Under the pieces are notes generated by a model. The model did no database searches. It saw only the letters and a list, made by a program, of their open reading frames with translations, and had not been told where the DNA came from. Shown one piece after another: positions 23,251 through 45,909 of a stretch of DNA of 64,000 bases. The DNA is from Eledone cirrhosa (Eukaryota), in assembly GCA_964016885.1 (NCBI GenBank), contig OZ024746.1, positions 92,690,001 through 92,754,000 on the forward strand, read 5' to 3'. Numbering within the stretch: position 1 is the first letter of the stretch; each line of letters begins with the position of its first letter. The translations under genes were made by a program, and so were the position numbers.

Positions 23251-23692
23251 AAGGTATATATTGAGTTAGGAACTCAAAATAGTCTCTTACAACAAAATAG
23301 CTCTAAGAAAGCGATATTTCCGAGCCGTATATTATAATAGAATATAAAAGAAAAATGAACAGAGGTTCAAATAGTAAGGGACCGGATTCGCTAAGGTGAA
23401 GAGAATACTAACTATAGATAATTGGGTTTGCTTGTCTCAATTTAAGAAAAAATTAAGAAAATAAATACAAACCGGAATTGTGGTAACTACCAATCACCCA
23501 GACAACTTCTTGTTGTTTCGCAATGTTAATAGAATTACCAATTCAAGCTCATCAGTGGGTGATGAATTAGTATCCTAGACACTTCTAAGTATATTAAGAA
23601 ACTGAATAGTGTGCCACATATACTAGTGCACATGGTATCTTAGCGTGTCTCACAAACTTACGCCACTAAAAATAGCAGCCAGGTTTACTCGA
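23250..23692 (-). mobile_element. Non-coding HHR-bearing element between (TA)n tracts, same family as 39133-39700
   Basis: 23258-23340 is complementary to 39620-39700; gctattttagtggc and tagaagtg blocks shared. Confidence 0.75.
23493..23563 (-). ncRNA. Type I hammerhead ribozyme, canonical core
   Basis: Minus strand: ATCACCCA-CTGATGA-GC…GC-GAAACAAC-aagaa-GTTGTC-TGGGTGAT; 8-bp stem I, 5-bp stem III, GUC triplet. Confidence 0.9.
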
Positions 23693-23696
23693 CATA

Positions 23697-23728
<32 letters not shown>

Positions 23729-24396
23729 GGAGGAGGTTATAGTTCACTTGAAGCATTGTGTAATGAGGTATAAACGTTTGAATATGTATAATAAAGCCAA
23801 AACAATGCAGGTATGGACATAGAAAAAAGAATGCAATTGCAGAAGATATTGTTGACAAATCGTCTTTTACCTTAGATTTATTTAAATGTCCTTAATTTTC
23901 GAGATAATATCTCTTCTTCAGAGGGAAATAAAGGTCTCAAACCAGCGTTCTAAATATCTTGCCAAGCCATGCTGACAGGAAATAGTATAGAGTATCTGTT
24001 CTATCTCTAATGTCAAAGAGTTAAAATTAGGTGGATAAAGAGTAGTCTCCCTTTAAAAGGGGTTTGTTTAGGGTTTTATTTTATATACATGCCTGTTTAA
24101 GTGTGTGGGAGAATGCATGAAGGTGTAAGTATGTGGGTGTGTGTGTGTGAGTGTGAGAAGATAAGTATATTCGTAAATGTGGGGGATAGGTGTTATCTGG
24201 TGTTAGAACTGGTTTTGTGTGTGTATGTGTGAGAGAGAATAAGTGGAGGTGTAAGCGTGTGTGTGTGTGCGTGTGTGTGGGGGGGGGGGTAAATATGGGG
24301 CTAGAAGCCCTATCAGGTTATAAATTGGGTGTTGAGTTCTAGTCTATTATTGATTTGTGGTTGTGTTTTATCTATAATTAGTGCTTCCTTAATTCT

Positions 24397-24609
24397 AAGA
24401 TAAGAATAAAGGAACACCTCAATACTAACGCTTCCTCATTTAAGAAACACCTAGTTAAATGCAAAAACACCAACAAAACCATAACAGTTAGGATAGAAAC
24501 TAAGGAAAGAAACCTCGGCAATCTTAGAATTAAGGAAGCACTAATTATAGATAAAACACAAACACCAATCAATAATAGACTAGAACTCAACACCCAATTT
24601 ATAACCTGA
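24397..24609 (+). pseudogene. C-terminal half of a Penelope GIY-YIG endonuclease (KIRIKEHLNTNASSFKKHL…LRIKEALIIDKTQTPINNRLELNTQFIT*)
   Basis: Hand translation; R..EH, H, L..KEAL.I and P.N motifs; no ATG, so absent from the ORF track. Confidence 0.85.
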
Positions 24610-24989
24610 TAGGGCTTCTAGCCCCGTATTTACCCCCCCCACACACACACACACACGCTTACACCTCCACTTATTCTCTCTCACACATACACACACAAAA
24701 CCAGTTGTAACACCAGATAACACCTATCCCCCACATTTACGAATAGACTTATCTTCTCACACTCACACACACACACTCACATACTTACACCTTCATGCAT
24801 TCTCCCACACACTTAAACAGGCATGTATATAAAAAAAAAAACCTAAACAAACCCCTTTTAAAGGGAGACTACTCTTTATCCACCTAATTTTAACTCTTTG
24901 ACATTAGAGATAGAACAGATACTCTATACTATTTCCTGTCAGCATGGCTTGGCAAGATATTTAGAAGGCTGGTTTGAGACCTTTATTTC

Positions 24990-25024
24990 CCTCTGAAGAA
25001 GAGATATTATCTCGAAAATTAAAG
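24990..25024 (+). ncRNA. Minimal HHR-like motif in the pLTR (antisense twin at 23890-23924)
   Basis: CCT-CTGAAGA-A-GAGAT/ATCTC-GAAAATTA-A(G/A)G; stem I is fully paired only in the left-arm copy. Confidence 0.6.
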
Positions 25025-25138
25025 ACATTTAAATAAATCTAAGGTAAAAGACGAATTGTCAACAATATCTTCTGCAATTGCATTCTTTTTTCTATGTCCA
25101 TACCTGCATTGTTTTGGCTTTATTATACATATTCAAAC

Positions 25139-33143: not shown

Positions 33144-36100
33144 TTCGGCTGATAATGCTTTCTTTATTAACCACAAGGGTTTACATAAAGTAGACATTAA
33201 GGACAGTACAATACAGGACGGTACAAATGGGCATTTCTGCGTGTAAAAAAAACAGAGGATGTAAAAAATAACAATGAAAAATTCCCCAATGGGGGGAGAC
33301 TTCTGAGGGACATTTGTGGAGAAAGCCCATTAAAAGGCCACAGTGGTCCTGACCACCAAGGCAAGTGCCCTTTCCCAGTTTTCCACCTTTAATTTACAGA
33401 CACATACTCAGAGTAGGCCCATTCACTCGGGCCATACTTGCTTCTCTCACCCATCTTTCAACAAAATGCTGGGAAGAGAGCACTTCCCTCTCTACCCTGA
33501 TTTTCCTTTTCAAATGAAATTTGAAAAAGTTAATCAGGGCATCACCGAAGAGGTAAGTGCTCGTCTTCAGCCCTTTCAAACGTGTCCACCATACTATCTC
33601 TTTCGCCATGGCCACCAGACAGATAAAAACTGCCTGCCCTTCCCGGCTAAAGGAAGAGGGTGGGGCAATCCTCACGATGGACTCAGCTGATAGCTGGATC
33701 CGTCCAGCAGGTGTTCGACATAAACCCACAAGTCAGCAATGCTCGGACACTGGACGAGTGCATGCAGGACAGTTTCGTCGCCCTGCGCGCATCTCGGACA
33801 TACCCGGCTGATGGCACCTCCATGCCTGTAGAGTTTATACCGAACTGGCAAAGCTCCTTGGTAGCACTGCCAGGCCAGGGATTTCTGGAAGTTGTCCATA
33901 GGCCCCGTCCCGAAAGTTCTTGTGAAGAGATTTGCTAGTTGATTTTCGTCGACGCCTAGAGTTTCTCCAAGTACGTTGTCGCTCTTCCCCTCCACTAATC
34001 CTCTATAGAACGCCATGGTGGAGTTTCCACCGATCTCATTGCCCGATTAGTCGAGGGCTGTGAGCGCCTGAAGACATTCCAGTCTCCAAGCGCTCCCTCT
34101 CGGTCTTCACTTGACCCAGGACTGCAGTTCCGTCAAGGAGATGAGCTGGCGAAAGACGCGTCTAGCAAACGGCGACCACACCTGATCACCGTAGAGGAAG
34201 AGGTGGAGATGTCGTAACCTGAGCGCGTGTCTGCGTATCATCAGCCACGGCATGCCCAGCCCTCCACGTAGCGGGTGTTGACAGCAGATGGACCGCCTGA
34301 CCATCGAAGCGCGTCCCTTCCACAAAAAGCGAAAGAGCAAACGCTCCAGCGCAGTCAGGCAGGGCTTAGGACAAGGTACAACGGTCAGGCGGTAGTAGAT
34401 GACGGACGCGATGTATGCGTTAGCCACCTCCGCTCGACCTTTCAGGGATAGCTTCCTCTTGGCCCATTTCTGGGTGAGAGAAGCCACTCTGCTCGTCACT
34501 TCGTCCCAGTTTTTGTCCGTCTGGAGGTCCTGACCAAACCAGACCCCTAGCAATTTAACCGGTCCGTCCGTCCAGCACCCGACGATGCTGCTGGACGGCA
34601 TGGACCTGCATCTCCAGGTGCCGAGCTGCAGGCCCACTGACTTTTCCTGGTTGATCATTGCTCCTGTCACCGCTTTGTATTCTCTTAGTGTAGTGCCGAT
34701 CGCCTCGATGTGTTTGGCGTTCGACACCACTACGGTGACATTGTCCGCATATTCTGACACGGATCTTCCGCATCCTAGTTTGCACGGGACCCCCCTTCAA
34801 CGTCTTCAGTTTGTGCAGTAATGGCTCGAGAGTCAATACGTACAAGAGGGATGAGAGGGGACATCCTTGGCGGACCGAGCGCATGATGTTGAACGGTTCC
34901 AAAAGGTGACCGTTCACTCTCACCGCAGGGCAGATGTCGCTGTGCATGGCAGCGATCCAGCCTCTGAAGACGGGCCCAAAGTCAGCCACCCTCAGGACTG
35001 CCGCTAGGTAACGATGGTCGACCCTATCGAAAGCTTTCGACTGATCTAAATTGATCAAGGATCCACCCATGCCAGGTTCCCTAGCTACCCTCTCTACGAT
35101 GTATCGCATGAGGTGGAGGTTGTCGTGGATGGATCCGCCACTCGGGCCCATTGAATGGCTTTCGTCCGCTCATGTCTGAGAGCACGCACCCTAGCTCTGA
35201 CAACGCAAGCCTTTGTGCTTTACATTGAAGAATTGGTCAAGGGCCAATTTCGCTGCAAGTACGTCGGTCACGATGCCTTTGCTAAGCGCCTCGTCTAATT
35301 TTCTAACTAATTCTCCCTCTGCTCTATTTTTCTCTATTGCTAAAGCCTTACTAAACCTAATGGACTCTATTCTAATCGCTCTTTTCAGAGCAAACCACCA
35401 CTTGTTGTTCACGATGGCCCCTATCAATGCCCGCTTAACTAGTTTACTCATTCGGTCTCTGTAGGACTTGCGCGCTGGTAAGGACGCGTTTAGCTTCCAG
35501 TAGCCGGGTCCTCGTCTATGAAGCCTATGTAAGTCAAGCACACAGATAACGAATTTATGGTCCGTATAGCTGACTATCTTGAATTGTAGACAGCCTATGC
35601 TAGACCTATCTATTTCCCTACAAAATACTCTATCTAGATATGATCTAGATGACCCTATGCGATTTGTCCAAGTCCACATTGGCACATTCGGGAAATCCAA
35701 TCGGTACCTGTCAGACAGTTCAAAACGCCTGAGCAGGTTGGTGAGGCTCTTGCACCCTCCTCCCCTATCCGCTAATCCCACACAGTCCCAGCGTGCATCT
35801 AAATTCCCGTTCCAGTCACCCACTAACACTAAAGTTCCAAAAAAGGTCTCCTGACGCCGGAAGAAATCAGGCCGCCCTGCTCCTGTCGGGGCATAGACGG
35901 CCACTAGCCTGAAAGCTTGCCCGTCTCCGCTGGTCACGTCCAGCACCACCAACTTACCTTCTGGGTCCAGGAAGATGGCCCGTATGGCGAGATCCAAACA
36001 TTTTGTTTGATAGTTTATTTTTTTCCCTCTGTATTTTGTTTTTGAAGAGGGAAGGAAGAGGATTTTTTTCTTTTTTTGGTTTCTTTTTCTTTTTTTTTCC

Positions 36101-37625
36101 CTGATACCGTTTCCCACTCCTCGTCGTCACAATCTGTCTCCAGTTGCGATAGGTCGGGGAGTGGAAAATCCTCCACAGGCGTTGGTTTTGGTTGTGGCGT
36201 GGTGGGTGGTGTAGGCGCTGGTGCTAGTTCTGGCGCGTTGGGTGGTGGTGGTGTTGGTTTTGCTACTGTTTCTGGGGTTGTTGCTGTTACAGTTGCTTCT
36301 GTTGTTGCTGCTACAGTTGTTGCTGCCATTTCTGCTGCTGGTGGTGTTGATGGTTGAGCCACCTTTTAGCCTGAGGGCAGAAAGCCCTTAGGTGGGTTCC
36401 TTCACCACAAACGACACACCTAGGCCTTCTGCCCTCGACGATTACGGTGAGGTGGCTGCCGTCAGTGAGGTCTATTACCTCTGGGATCTCCTCAATGCTT
36501 TTTTGGTCCGCTTGGATCAGGAGCTCCATCCCAGATCCGGACCAGTTCTCCTGCTTTTCTTTCACTATTTTGATTATCTTGGTGTTGGCCTCGATGCCGG
36601 TGAGGACTGCAGCCATTAGCCAGGGAATTTCGATGACCGATGGATGATCTTCACGAGTCTCTGGCCACAATAGCTTGGAACGAGTGTGAAGTCGTCACTT
36701 CTTAATGGGGCCATGGAGTGTTCTCTGGCCTCCTGTGGTGTTTCAAAGAACACGTCCACGGTTCCATATTTCTGCCCACGTCTGATGTGGGGTTTTTTTG
36801 CCCACACATGTCCCAAAGCTTTTTGGATTTGGGACTCGGATGCCCGTTCCACTCGGCGCGATTTTATGTTAATCGTCCGATAAGACACGGCGCCGATGCT
36901 CCATTTTATTAGGTGGGGGGTGAGGCTGACCCTGTACCCATCTTTCTTTACCATTCTCTTGGCTTCATCTAATTCCTCCTGAGTTACCTGGATTGCTTCG
37001 CACTTTTTTGCTACTCTGGCAAAAGGCAGGGTGGTTTTCTTATTCTCATTGTTGTTGTTGCTGTTGTTGTTATCGTTATTTTTGTTATTGTTATTTTTAG
37101 TTTCAGTTGAGGTGGTGGTGGCGTCAGTTGTGTTCGGTGTGGAAGAGTCCATTTTGGGTGAATCCATTTCGATGACACGAGATAATTTATTTTTTTCTTT
37201 TGTTTCTGTTGTCGCTGTGGTGGTGCTGGAGGTGGCGGCTTCAACACCTGCAGTCATTGGTAATGGCGGGAAATGAATGTCTGCATGAGACAAATTTAAA
37301 TTATTGCTACTGCTTATATTTTTAGTGTTGGTAAACGTAGTAATATTTACAATGATGGTGTCGGTGTGAGGTGTTAGTTTGTGAGGAAGGTGTGACTGTG
37401 AGTCGTCCATGATTTTTTTTTAAAGACATTTTTGTTTGATAATTATAAAAGTTTAAATTTTGGGCTCAAGGTCCCAATCTTTTTGAGTGTCCTTTTCAGA
37501 AAACAATGTATGTGCACTTATATACAGTTAACAATAAAAAATTTCCATAAATGGCAATTTTAAACAACTGAAAACAACAAACCTTTGCGGAGCTCACGAT
37601 AATACGATTTCCTACGTAGGTCGCC
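33144..37625 (-). mobile_element. L1/Tx1-type LINE, both ends retained, ORF1 and ORF2 frameshifted and internally deleted
   Basis: ORF1 with zinc knuckle CVVCGEGTHLRAFC; APE motifs (VYAP, GDWN, LDR, TDH, GYWKLN); RT motifs (LDQSKAFDRVDH, RQGCPLS, YADN); C-terminal CPRC…H…C; (AAT)n on both flanks. Confidence 0.93.
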
Positions 37626-37757: not shown

Positions 37758-37815
37758 GAAATCTCTTTTTGAAACGTTCTTTAGTAGAAAAGCACTTCCT
37801 ATGGTAACAGTCAAG
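37758..37815 (+). CDS. KMO: KMO exon 8 (KSLFETFFSRKALPMVTVK)
   Basis: Polypyrimidine tract plus cAG, GTAAAA donor; 58 nt restores phase 0. Confidence 0.9.
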
Positions 37816-39073
37816 GTAAAATTAAAAAGTTATTCCCCATTTTTTTTTCAAAGCAAAGTTATTATTTTAATTCTGATAGAGTAGACTACAGTCAATGTTG
37901 TTCACATTGGTGTTTTTGTCATTGTAATAACGTTAAAGATGAATAGACCTCCATCATAACTGACGGAGATGGTGATGACAATATATATGAATATCATCAT
38001 CATCATCATCGTTTAACATCCATCTTCCACGCGAGCATGGGTTGGACGGTTTTTGTCCCACTTGAGGCAAGATTGGTCGGGAGACTGTGTCTTGCTCGTA
38101 CAGAACTTTTTCTGGCAGGTTTTCTATGGCTGGATGCCCTTCCTAACACCAACCATATTTACAGTGTGGATTGGGATCCTTTTTACCATGTCTCCTACAT
38201 GACCACTTTACAGTGTGGACTGGGTGCTTTTTGTCGTGTCACCTACACAATATATATATATAGTCTGTTTGCTTTTTACAAGAAACTTGAAGTACGCAAA
38301 TTCACTTTAATGCCTCTTGAAAAAATATTATCAAATATTCACTGTGCGCGAATAATGCGCTATAACACATGTGGTTTTTAATTTTTTTATTTATCAGAAA
38401 TATAATATAACATTAGAATTGACAAAGGGAATCATCAGAAATAATAATATAGTATATATTAGAGTTGCATTTTTATTCAATTGTTTCTCTCGCTCTGACT
38501 CCACTGACAGTCTCTACCTGCATACTGTATTGAATAATTATTATTGTTGTTGTATTCATCCATGCAGAAGCTGAAAGCGATAACAATATCTAAATACTGT
38601 ACTTCGTCAAGTTTACCTTTGTCAGACTTTGTATTTTTCTACAACTTCCATTTTTACCATGAACAGCAAGCAAGGCACCAAAAGATTTGAATTATGCAAA
38701 TGTGCTTTATGAACCACATTCACCTTTGCACAAAAAGCGAACAGAATGTATATATATGTGTGTGTGTGTATATATATACAAAATATAGACGAAAATACAT
38801 ACAAACAGTATATTTAATATTATAAGGTTTATAACAATAATATAAAAATGTATTTTGCTTGAAGCATTTTAAACGATATATAATGTGGAAAATAATATAA
38901 GTAAGAAGGGGAAAATGCAAAATGGATGATAAGATGAAGGTAACAAAAAAGTTAGTTACCTGGTAATCTTTCTTTATTGTTTTTTTTTTTGTTTTGTTTC
39001 TTTCATCTAGTCTTTGAAATTAGATTCAATTAAATTTAATTACAAAATAAAAAAGAGAGAGAGAGAGAGAGAG

Positions 39074-39122
<49 letters not shown>

Positions 39123-39132
39123 ATATATATAT

Positions 39133-39700
39133 ATAATTGAATAAACAAGAGAGATGAACACTAATATAAACATACATGTGTTCGAATCATAAGGACCAAG
39201 TTTGTCGGCTCCATCATGTAGAGCTAATTTTAATGTCCTGTCAGCAAGGCAGCTATTTTTAGTGGCAGAGAATTTCGAGACAAGCTGGGTTCTGAACACA
39301 TGCGATAATTCTTATCGAAAACAATTCAGTCTCTCATATTTTTAGAAGTGGAAGGATCACTAATTTCTCAACAACTACTGAAGAGCAGAGAAGAGTGTCA
39401 ACTTCACTTTATAAGATGTTGTGAAACAGTCTCCAATACTGTCTAGTTGTTACCAGGCGATTTGCCCAATATAGGTCTGTTACTTTTTTTAATTTAATAT
39501 TTAAAATTAATTCTGACAAACCATATTGCTGTAGCTAGTATTTTTTCACCTTAGCAAACTTGGTCCTTACAATTCGAACACATGTATGTTTATATTATTG
39601 TTCATCTCCCTTGTTTATTCAATTATATTGTACGGCTCGGAAAAGCTTTTTTCTTAGAGCTATTTAATTATAGGAGACTACTCTGAGTTTCTAACTCACT
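39133..39700 (+). mobile_element. Non-coding HHR-bearing Penelope-like element with ~70-bp inverted arms (39133-39203 / 39555-39625)
   Basis: Inverted repeat read directly; flanked by (TA)n; homologous to 23250-23692. Confidence 0.8.
39370..39451 (+). ncRNA. Type I hammerhead ribozyme, canonical core, sense to KMO intron 8
   Basis: AACAACTA-CTGAAGA-GCAG…TTGT-GAAACAGT-ctccaat-ACTGTC-TAGTTGTT; 8-bp stem I, 5-bp stem III, GUC triplet. Confidence 0.9.
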
Positions 39701-40088
39701 ATATATATATATATATATATATGGGATAAGTTATCGTTTTAGGTAATCCAATTAGAGGTTGTGAGTACTCTGTACTATGGATATTTTTAACGTACGGCGT
39801 TGTTTGACTCAACAAGAGGTTTCCTTAGTTAGCGAGTTTGCGAGAATTAATTCCCATGCAGGTTATTCTTGGAGTAATAGTAGAGAAAGAGTGAAGAATA
39901 ACATGGTTGTATAAACAGGGTTTTATTTACAGTATTAACAATTGTTTCATTGATCAGGTGAGTCTAAAGGCTTTTTGTATAGCCGACCATGTTAGTCTTC
40001 ACTCTTTCACTACTATATATATATATGTATTTATGTATATACATATCATATATCTATCACCCCCCCCCCCCCCTCTCTCTGCTTCTAG

Positions 40089-40193
<105 letters not shown>

Positions 40194-40872: not shown

Positions 40873-40964
40873 GGGCTGAGTAAGCCTAGCTCTGTTGCAT
40901 AACAACTCTTTGAAGTTTCTTTCATATTGATTCTATATGTTTTATCTTTCTTTCATTGTCAATA

Positions 40965-41530
40965 CTGGTTTACAATAGGTATACTATATCCCTGTGTGTA
41001 TCTAGTTTACAATAAGTACACGGAGTCCCTGTGTGTATCTGGTTTACAATCCATGCACTAGGACCTGGTGTGCAGTGTCAGTTGTTTGTAGGGAAGTAGT
41101 GGTTTGTACTTAGTGAAGTTTTTTAGAACCTTGTGTTTGCGATTCCTGTATGTATTATGAAGAAGTAGGGCTAGCTTTCATCTAAGCTAGAAATAGAATT
41201 TAATAAAAAATATATACACTGTATCCTTGTGTGTATCTGGTTTACAATAGGTACACTATACCTCTATGTGCATCTGGTTTACAATAGGTACACTGTATCC
41301 CTATGTGTATCTGGTTTACAATACGTACACTATATCTTTATGTGTATCTGGTTTACAATAGGTAAACTGTATCCCTGTGTATAACTAGTTTACAATAGGT
41401 ACATCACATCCCTATGTGTATCTAGTTTACAATAGGTACACTGTATCCCTGTGTGTATCTGGTTTACAATAGGTACACTATATCCCTATGTGTATCTGGT
41501 TTACAATCGGTACACCTCATACCTATGTGT
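40965..41530 (+). repeat. 37-bp minisatellite, same family as 5378-6050
   Basis: Units at 41231, 41268, 41305, 41342 and onward. Confidence 0.9.
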
Positions 41531-41759
41531 CAAAAAAGGCAACTAAAGGGTTGGGACCAGGAAAAGTATCTGGCTGTGAAATATTACACAACCCCCCAGT
41601 ACCCCAAGGTGTGTATAAAGCTTGTCAGAGGGCCTGTAGGCTAACAGCTTCTTTAGCAGGGAAGATGGCCTTACAACATTTGTTTTTCTTGCTCTTATTG
41701 TTTGCCAAAGAGAAAGACAAATAGAAAAGTTACCAAAGAAAATTTATCTTATTTTACAG

Positions 41760-45367: not shown

Positions 45368-45375
<8 letters not shown>

Positions 45376-45824
45376 AGAACAAAAGATGGTTAAAAGAGTT
45401 CCATGTATTTTATTATGCGCATTTCAAAAACAAATATCATCATGTAATAATATTTGTGTTTTCATCAGATAAAATAGGAAGACATGATATGAAGGTTAAA
45501 AAACACTTGTGGATAGTGCAGTTTTAAATCAACTGCACTATCATGGTAAGACTGGGGTTCCTGTCATTAAAACACCCAAGAAGCCATCTATAAGGTGTAA
45601 CCTTGTGGTGTCAGTTGTAAAATCCGTTTTTTTTTTATTACTTTTGCTTCATTCATCTCATCACCCATATTGTGTCTATCCACAAGTGTTTTTTAACCTT
45701 CATATCATGTCTTCCTATTTTATCTGATGAAAACACAAATATTATTACATGATGATATTTGTTTTTGAAATGCGCATAATAAAATACATGGAACTCTTTT
45801 AACCCCCTTTTGTTCTTATATATT
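45368..45824. mobile_element. Fold-back Penelope-like relic with near-identical ~147-bp inverted arms, each carrying an HHR
   Basis: 45368-45515 is the reverse complement of 45676-45824; abuts (TA)n. Confidence 0.88.
45716..45786 (+). ncRNA. Minimal hammerhead ribozyme (antisense twin at 45406-45476)
   Basis: TATTTTAT-CTGATGA-AAAcACAAATATTATTA/TGATGATATTTGTtTTT-GAAAT-GCGC-ATA-ATAAAATA; stem III palindrome ATGCGCAT. Confidence 0.88.
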
Positions 45825-45909
45825 ATGTATACTCCAGTCCTACAAACTGTAGAGTGCTTCTTATCCGATATCTGCATTGCTTTATTGTACTACAATAAAA
45901 CTCACCTCC

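Follow-up and report, generated by a model that had tools for sequence, protein, structure and literature searches.

A hammerhead ribozyme motif in intron 8 of octopod kynurenine 3-monooxygenase as probable cargo of a high-copy, likely Penelope-like repeat

Does a self-cleaving motif on the sense strand of an ommochrome-pathway gene act on its host, or does it belong to something that landed there? A ribozyme tuning octopus ommochrome synthesis would matter, and this possibility was raised by a first-pass annotation, which placed a hammerhead in intron 8 of the gene for kynurenine 3-monooxygenase (KMO) and proposed that it influences splicing or output. We analysed the whole stretch of 64,000 nt (the window) and found the motif where it had been placed, between coding exons 8 and 9 of the plus-strand gene. 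The evidence presented below makes the KMO copy a passenger. Very probably, a real type I hammerhead is carried as the cargo of a repeat of ~500 nt that occurs in many copies and is likely a non-autonomous Penelope-like element (PLE); this repeat sits in (TA)n of KMO intron 8 and likely has little or no effect on KMO. The coordinates are collected in Table 1. Exon and intron numbers of KMO count coding exons only, and hammerhead positions (A13, A14, 10.1-11.1, and so on) are given in the standard numbering, as used in the literature cited.

Table 1. Positions in the window of the hammerhead, its repeat unit, the sister element, and the host gene
Feature	Position	Strand	Basis or remark
Host gene KMO, octopod, 14 coding exons	5260-47460	+	Protein likeness
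KMO coding exon 8, 58 nt	37758-37815	+	
KMO intron 8, 2273 nt	37816-40088	+	Spliced contig
KMO coding exon 9	40089-40178	+	
Type I hammerhead ribozyme motif	39370-39451	+	Sequence parts, shuffle test, compensatory changes in sister families
Stem I, 8 bp	39370-39377 / 39444-39451		AACAACTA pairs with TAGTTGTT; read from the sequence
Hammerhead core	39378-39384, 39423-39426		CTGAAGA and GAAA
Stem II, 3-4 bp	39385-39388 / 39419-39422		Closing pair G-U
Stem III, 5 bp	39426-39430 / 39438-39442		A15.1-U16.1 counted
GTC	39441-39443		Predicted cut 39443/39444
Core base A13	39424	+	Intact in the window copy, mutation hotspot of the family; family A copy comparisons
Predicted pseudoknot, 6+4 bp	39358-39397	+	5' flank 39358-39369 with loop II 39388-39397; computed pairing
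Family A full unit, ~500-nt non-coding dispersed repeat, likely non-autonomous PLE	39201-39699	+	Followed by (TA)n
Inverted 5'-truncated partial second copy (of 39555-39628)	39131-39204	-	Ends in (TA)n
Putative intron-like GT..AG stretch within the element	39475-39554	+	Conserved in families A and B
Sister element, family B, in KMO intron 3, antisense	23255-23695	-	65% identical to family A; own hammerhead

The hammerhead motif and the repeat that carries it

The canonical core, the 8-bp stem I, the 5-bp stem III, and the GUC site with its cut after 39443 were all found exactly where the first-pass annotation had them, and the G-U closing pair of stem II is likewise present. The window copy possesses the features of a type I hammerhead, namely CUGANGA, GAAA, NUH, three helices, and an open stem I. 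The description as an intact hammerhead holds for the core, in which all invariant bases are kept, but not for positions 10.1-11.1, at which the G-C of the family has been lost. A scan of the window with a hammerhead descriptor detected four hammerhead-like motifs. As a control, we permuted dinucleotide blocks inside 500-nt bins, and among the 40 locally shuffled windows thus obtained none contained an equally good match (0/40) and three contained any loose match (3/40). In Rfam searches, nothing in the window reached the gathering score, and around the motif no hammerhead family appeared even at E values up to 10. In the minimum-energy fold, stems I and III were formed and stem II was absent (z = +0.90). 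At the level of the sequence, we regard the motif at 39370-39451 as confirmed and genuine.

The unit around the motif contains no long open frame. An inverted piece on its left is joined to it via four shared bases (39201-39204), and the resulting arms, 39131-39204 and 39555-39628, are complementary at 70 of 74 positions. These inverted arms do flank the hammerhead without covering it, as had been noted, but they are not the two ends of the element, as the right arm is internal to the unit, which continues to 39699. At both outer ends of the locus there is (TA)n. The repeat is highly abundant: the 3' half of the ribozyme alone has 163 exact matches in the genome (control 0), and a first look returned 2260 candidates for the family A region, of which 40 were scored. 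In the fetched loci, family A copies form partial head-to-tail tandems and carry inverted 5'-truncated pieces. The inverted pieces vary in length and are lacking altogether in many copies, and direct partial tandems occur in many. At one locus (L062), the ribozyme position is covered twice, in tandem; the window locus holds one hammerhead, not the two in tandem expected of an active non-LTR retrozyme. Two 3' end points lie about 75 nt apart, and each is often trailed by TA repeats (43/129 and 36/147 junctions). A search for a fossil trace of cleavage, in a sample biased to ribozyme-containing loci, gave a single 5'-truncated piece out of 181 that begins at the cut site.

With the intron-like stretch of the unit, KMO intron 8 has gained a good 3' splice site that reads in the sense direction. 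No exact match to a spliced version of the stretch was found in the genome, and one-mismatch matches numbered 3 versus 2 in the control. No use of this splice site was seen among the joints of the X4 contig described below.

The anatomy of family A matches published descriptions of PLEs (PMC8557442, PMC11167929), and we judge the unit likely to be a non-autonomous Penelope-like retroelement of the retrozyme type. Partial tandem and inverted 5'-truncated insertions are known from PLEs, and such an insertion anatomy is described in the accessible text of PMC8557442. Family A has both of these, and it also has the AT-rich or microsatellite targets and the alternative 3' ends (tail) by which PLEs are recognized. 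For purified PLE protein, two internal start sites are given in the accessible text of PMC11167929. In our proposal, the unit RNA would depend for its copying on a trans-acting Penelope-type protein (reverse transcriptase/GIY-YIG); copying would start at the two preferred 3' points, into (TA)n; and the hammerhead, likely braced by a pseudoknot, would trim the element RNA to unit length.

This genome is rich in autonomous PLEs. None adjoined the unit as a partner in the 40 family A loci or in 32 sister-family loci, and two autonomous PLE families of the same genome had no sequence in common with the family A unit, so that the mobiliser can only be inferred. An endonuclease remnant beside the unit at locus L050 was rejected as a partner, as TA repeats intervene. 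Among the PLEs encountered, one very abundant family (L208:1-7001 and L209; 38842 first-look candidates) has frames of up to 995 aa and bears a minimal hammerhead-like motif of its own, and locus L045 contains a full 905-aa frame of reverse transcriptase plus GIY-YIG.

Sister families, a predicted pseudoknot, and the A13 hotspot

The sister element in KMO intron 3 has a G-C-closed hammerhead whose core begins at 23555, and its family B gave 3049 first-look candidates. An upstream motif common to the sister families has 675 exact matches (control 0), and 32 fetched loci of this motif revealed four further families, resulting in six families. From 119 anchors, we parsed 63 copies of these six families for covariation analysis; as the copies had been pre-filtered for pairing, the pair types count as evidence and the percentages do not. 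Changes on both sides were found at pairs 1, 2, 4, and 7 of stem I and at pairs 3, 4, and 5 of stem III, with the core constant and pairs 1-2 of stem II nearly invariant. Judging from these compensatory changes across the six families, the hammerhead fold is selected at the family level, for the element and not for KMO.

In all six families, the first bases of loop II can pair with the 5' flanking sequence of stem I (-8.3 to -12.0 kcal/mol). With the family representatives, which stem from mutually related families, 0-19 of 1000 shuffles were as good. The pairing is family-specific for A, in which loop and flank pair at -8.8 kcal/mol versus -1.0 to -2.3 kcal/mol for the same loop with the flanks of other families. 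In the window copy, it amounts to -7.8 kcal/mol versus the family median of -8.8 kcal/mol. Flank and loop II are thus predicted to form a pseudoknot, which would likely brace the hammerhead. The accessible text of PMC3088659 describes many hammerheads that are stabilised by a pseudoknot between loop II and the flank, with fast cleavage being possible. Folding as a monomer, which the first-pass annotation had considered feasible, is thus plausible on modelling grounds and is backed by the predicted pseudoknot that it had overlooked. In the nested fold, an upstream hairpin contends for the flank; this hairpin at 39345-39369 can sequester the flank in the nested prediction and may constitute a conformational switch.

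Within family A, one core base is affected far more often than its neighbour. A13 is the most-changed non-CpG site in 30 family A copies picked by overall likeness, with 7 changes on the tree, and in a second set of family A copies, picked by the upstream anchor, it is changed in 10 of 24, with a deletion in addition. Genome-wide searches with exact patterns gave 127 intact sites, 39 with A13 substituted, and 6 with A14 substituted (39/166 vs 6/133, Fisher p = 3e-6). The substitutions comprised 23 G, 13 T, and 3 C. A13 changes are found in three different subfamily backgrounds; where a single insertion contains two copies, these sometimes differ and sometimes agree at A13. Neither of the two family B copy sets had an A13 hotspot. 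An apparent hotspot at G8 in family B (6/36) was rejected, as it was absent from the second set (0/17), and an excess of changes at U4 in family A (6/30) replicated weakly (3/24).

Mixed substitutions at one adenosine are reminiscent of the errors that reverse transcriptases make at bases modified on the Watson-Crick face, such as m1A, for which a mixture of G and T is typical. This resemblance leads us to a modification reading that we put forward as a speculation, rather doubtful in our own estimation: A13 may carry an m1A-like mark on its Watson-Crick face that inactivates the hammerhead and leaves uncut RNA available for reverse transcription; the misread base would then be fossilised in the DNA, where about one quarter of the copies would retain it as G, T, or C, or as a deletion. 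RNA editing is heavy in cephalopods, and A-to-I editing is a rival explanation, but it accounts for G alone. Further rivals are a mutation hotspot at a local DNA hairpin, and an origin from several master copies incapable of cleavage, combined with recombination. That modified bases cause misincorporation by reverse transcriptases is described in the accessible text of PMC13338051, and the literature that we searched on A13 or m1A in hammerheads yielded nothing on this hotspot. If the modification reading is true, it would represent a natural modification switch on a ribozyme that is legible from DNA alone, and the A13 mark would also control cutting by the intact KMO copy. This strong single-site hotspot bears on the question why PLEs carry hammerheads even though uncut RNA is the main template for their insertion (PMC11167929).

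State of the KMO copy and its bearing on the host gene

Compared with the majority of its six nearest relatives, the window copy has 18 private changes in 435 nt (~4%), which are distributed evenly between the ribozyme (4/82) and the remainder (14/353; p = 0.76). At structure-critical sites, 1 of 61 was changed versus 2.5 expected (P = 0.28). The copy appears to drift neutrally, without excess conservation of the ribozyme at the low power that 18 changes afford. It is 6-7% from its nearest relatives and therefore young. The G-U closing pair corresponds to a C-to-T exchange at a CpG, which is also found in 13 of the first 100 among the 3'-half matches listed, and the closing pair is G-C in 37 of the 41 descriptor-passing copies. 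G10.1-C11.1 is common and not essential, and U-U at 10.1-11.1 can be active (PMC3088659, in its accessible text); a measurement of G10.1-U11.1 was not found in the literature, including the accessible parts of PMC9901934, PMC2837043, and PMC11300833.

In the nested model, the active form of the window copy costs 7.0 kcal/mol, against 3.4 kcal/mol for the median of the family, which places it 34th of the 35 copies that pass the descriptor. With more surrounding sequence, its cost is 7-12 kcal/mol. As this model leaves out the pseudoknot and the core contacts, it overstates the cost, and the ranking alone is meaningful. A core and closing pair that are both fully canonical were found in 10/30 and 5/26 family A copies, the latter set including truncated ones, and canonical cores are thus a minority, which makes the window copy better preserved than most. 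We are inclined to expect measurable cleavage by the window copy in vitro, but this cleavage would probably be slow.

The host gene is identified as an octopod KMO by its exon 7, which is 91-95% identical to Argonauta and Octopus proteins, and by matches in the PDB. A 1837-nt contig (X4) spans KMO exons 7-11, with exons 7, 9, and 11 being free of mismatches. GT..AG joints were listed into exons 8, 10, and 11 and the 8-9 joint is missing from the list; exactly 58 nt, the length of exon 8, lie between exons 7 and 9, and intron 8 is therefore absent from this contig. The contig informs about presence, not yield, and the X4 run is not recorded as RNA. In contigs of organism B (X5), exon 9 is covered and intron 8 is covered in patches, as repeats break the contigs. 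X4 contigs leave the ribozyme uncovered, and X5 contigs hardly cover family A at all; neither gap in coverage was counted as evidence.

The 3' splice site of exon 9 lies 645 nt downstream of the cut site. For a polymerase that moves at 1-3.8 kb per min, the lower figure being assumed and the upper one originating from human cells (PMC2995048), the share of transcripts computed to be cut before transcription of this splice site is 13-40% at 0.8 per min, a rate given for a coral retrozyme (PMC7229834), 1-5% at 0.08 per min, and less than 1% at 0.008 per min. A second-hand account in PMC2995048 states that hammerhead-cut introns are spliced as efficiently as uncut ones, and that of two intronic ribozymes only the faster blocked splicing, whereas the slower hammerhead did not. 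In KMO pre-mRNA, cutting would be slow if it occurs at all, and would mostly follow the synthesis of the exon 9 splice site, at which stage it is predicted not to block splicing. The idea that the motif influences KMO splicing or output found no support: there are hundreds of copies, no excess conservation, and a low folding rank, the spliced X4 contig joins exons 8 and 9, and cut introns can be spliced (PMC2995048, accessible text). A regulatory role in KMO is thus unsupported, and we interpret the family A hammerhead in KMO as a transposon passenger in a host intron. Intronic positions are also frequent in Xenopus, where about 42-44% of the retrozyme copies are intronic, though depleted per length (10.64898/2026.07.22.740005, accessible text).

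The KMO gene contains four further hammerhead motifs, one of which is also in sense orientation. In intron 13 (~45370-45900), there is an inverted pair of another element with a hammerhead in each copy; these have a short palindromic stem III and cores at 45468 (-) and 45724 (+), the + copy being sense to KMO. Intron 3 contains inverted remnants of an autonomous Penelope-like element (~23700-25100) with a GIY-YIG end at 24382-24606 and a minimal hammerhead at 23921 (-). A further repeat at 39730-40016, just upstream of exon 9, has a 41-nt inverted pair (39877-39917 / 39976-40016) and is highly covered in X1. In intron 7, a long LINE-like element (~33300-37420, -) has endonuclease and reverse-transcriptase frames by eye, and parts of it are strongly covered by X4 contigs; intron 9 contains a 37-nt tandem array (40900-41578).

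An effect on KMO could in principle arise as an unselected side effect, if this copy cut a sizeable share of the nascent transcripts before exon 9 is defined and thereby lowered output in carriers. In favour of this, the copy has kept its core, stems I and III, and the predicted pseudoknot, it is in sense orientation, the calculation at 0.8 per min allows for such early cuts, and a fast intronic ribozyme is reported second-hand to have blocked splicing (PMC2995048). We nevertheless consider this unlikely, given the G-U closing pair, the poor folding rank, the 645 nt to the 3' splice site with the few early cuts computed at 0.08 per min, the slower hammerhead that let splicing proceed (PMC2995048), and the existence of the spliced X4 contig. 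Far less probable still is a domesticated regulator similar to CPEB3, in which cleavage is tuned to splicing and sets the flux through the ommochrome pathway. It has a precedent in mouse Cpeb3 (PMC10919898, accessible text), and the single change among 61 critical sites could be taken as a sign of conservation, but this number is within the neutral expectation, the sole critical change strikes the most conserved pair of stem II, and the copy is young.

Two other alternatives concern the nature of the element and of the motif itself. The 74-nt inverted arms around the motif and the TA-rich flanks are reminiscent of a MITE or another DNA transposon that is bounded by terminal inverted repeats and has the hammerhead as internal cargo. 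The internal position of the right arm, the variable 5' ends, which contradict fixed terminal inverted repeats, and the many copies with direct partial tandems or without inverted pieces make this highly improbable. A chance match to the hammerhead consensus, in line with the missing Rfam hit and the missing stem II in the minimum-energy fold, is scarcely conceivable, as none of the 40 shuffles was equally good and the six families combine a constant core with compensating substitutions in stems I and III. The reading as cargo of a likely non-autonomous PLE places the KMO copy in an octopod superfamily of non-autonomous elements that bear hammerheads, likely with a pseudoknot. The hundreds of natural intronic and intergenic copies of this superfamily could serve to test whether introns are cleared of active ribozymes on the sense strand.

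Relation to known systems

Nothing on family A was found in the literature on octopus hammerhead ribozymes, as far as the texts were accessible; the supplements of PMC3088659, PMC4209133, PMC7229834, and PMC8557442 may list octopus motifs. In their accessible descriptions (PMC7229834; 10.64898/2026.07.22.740005), animal non-LTR retrozymes likewise are non-coding units of a few hundred nucleotides with one type I hammerhead each, and they form head-to-tail partial repeats and many dispersed monomers that are often intronic. The family A unit is longer (~500 nt versus ~220-390 nt), has frequent 5' inversions, and had no long tandem arrays in the loci seen.

Family A resembles PLEs and their pseudo-LTRs (PMC4209133, PMC8557442, PMC11167929, accessible text) in its insertions, which include partial tandems and inverted pieces with truncated 5' ends, in its (TA)n targets, its pair of 3' end points (tail), and its hammerhead, and it has a putative intron-like stretch kept in the DNA. 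It differs from them by having no open frame, by a tail of ~75 nt instead of 30-40, and by a full stem III and a long loop II, whereas most animal PLEs have a minimal dimer-type ribozyme. Pseudoknot-stabilised hammerheads (PMC3088659, accessible text) likewise combine a short stem II with a long stem I and have loop II paired, by Watson-Crick bonds, to the stem I flank, as is predicted here; in the octopod families, the predicted pairing extends over 8-14 bp, depending on the family, and is rivalled by an upstream hairpin in the nested prediction.

Finally, intronic regulatory ribozymes, such as that of CPEB3, which lies 9.9 kb from the next exon (PMC10919898, accessible text), and the amniote intronic hammerheads (PMC6765202), also are sense self-cleaving motifs in a host intron, as is predicted here for KMO. 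These ribozymes are single-copy and conserved across species, whereas the KMO copy belongs to a repeat and appears to be young and neutrally drifting.
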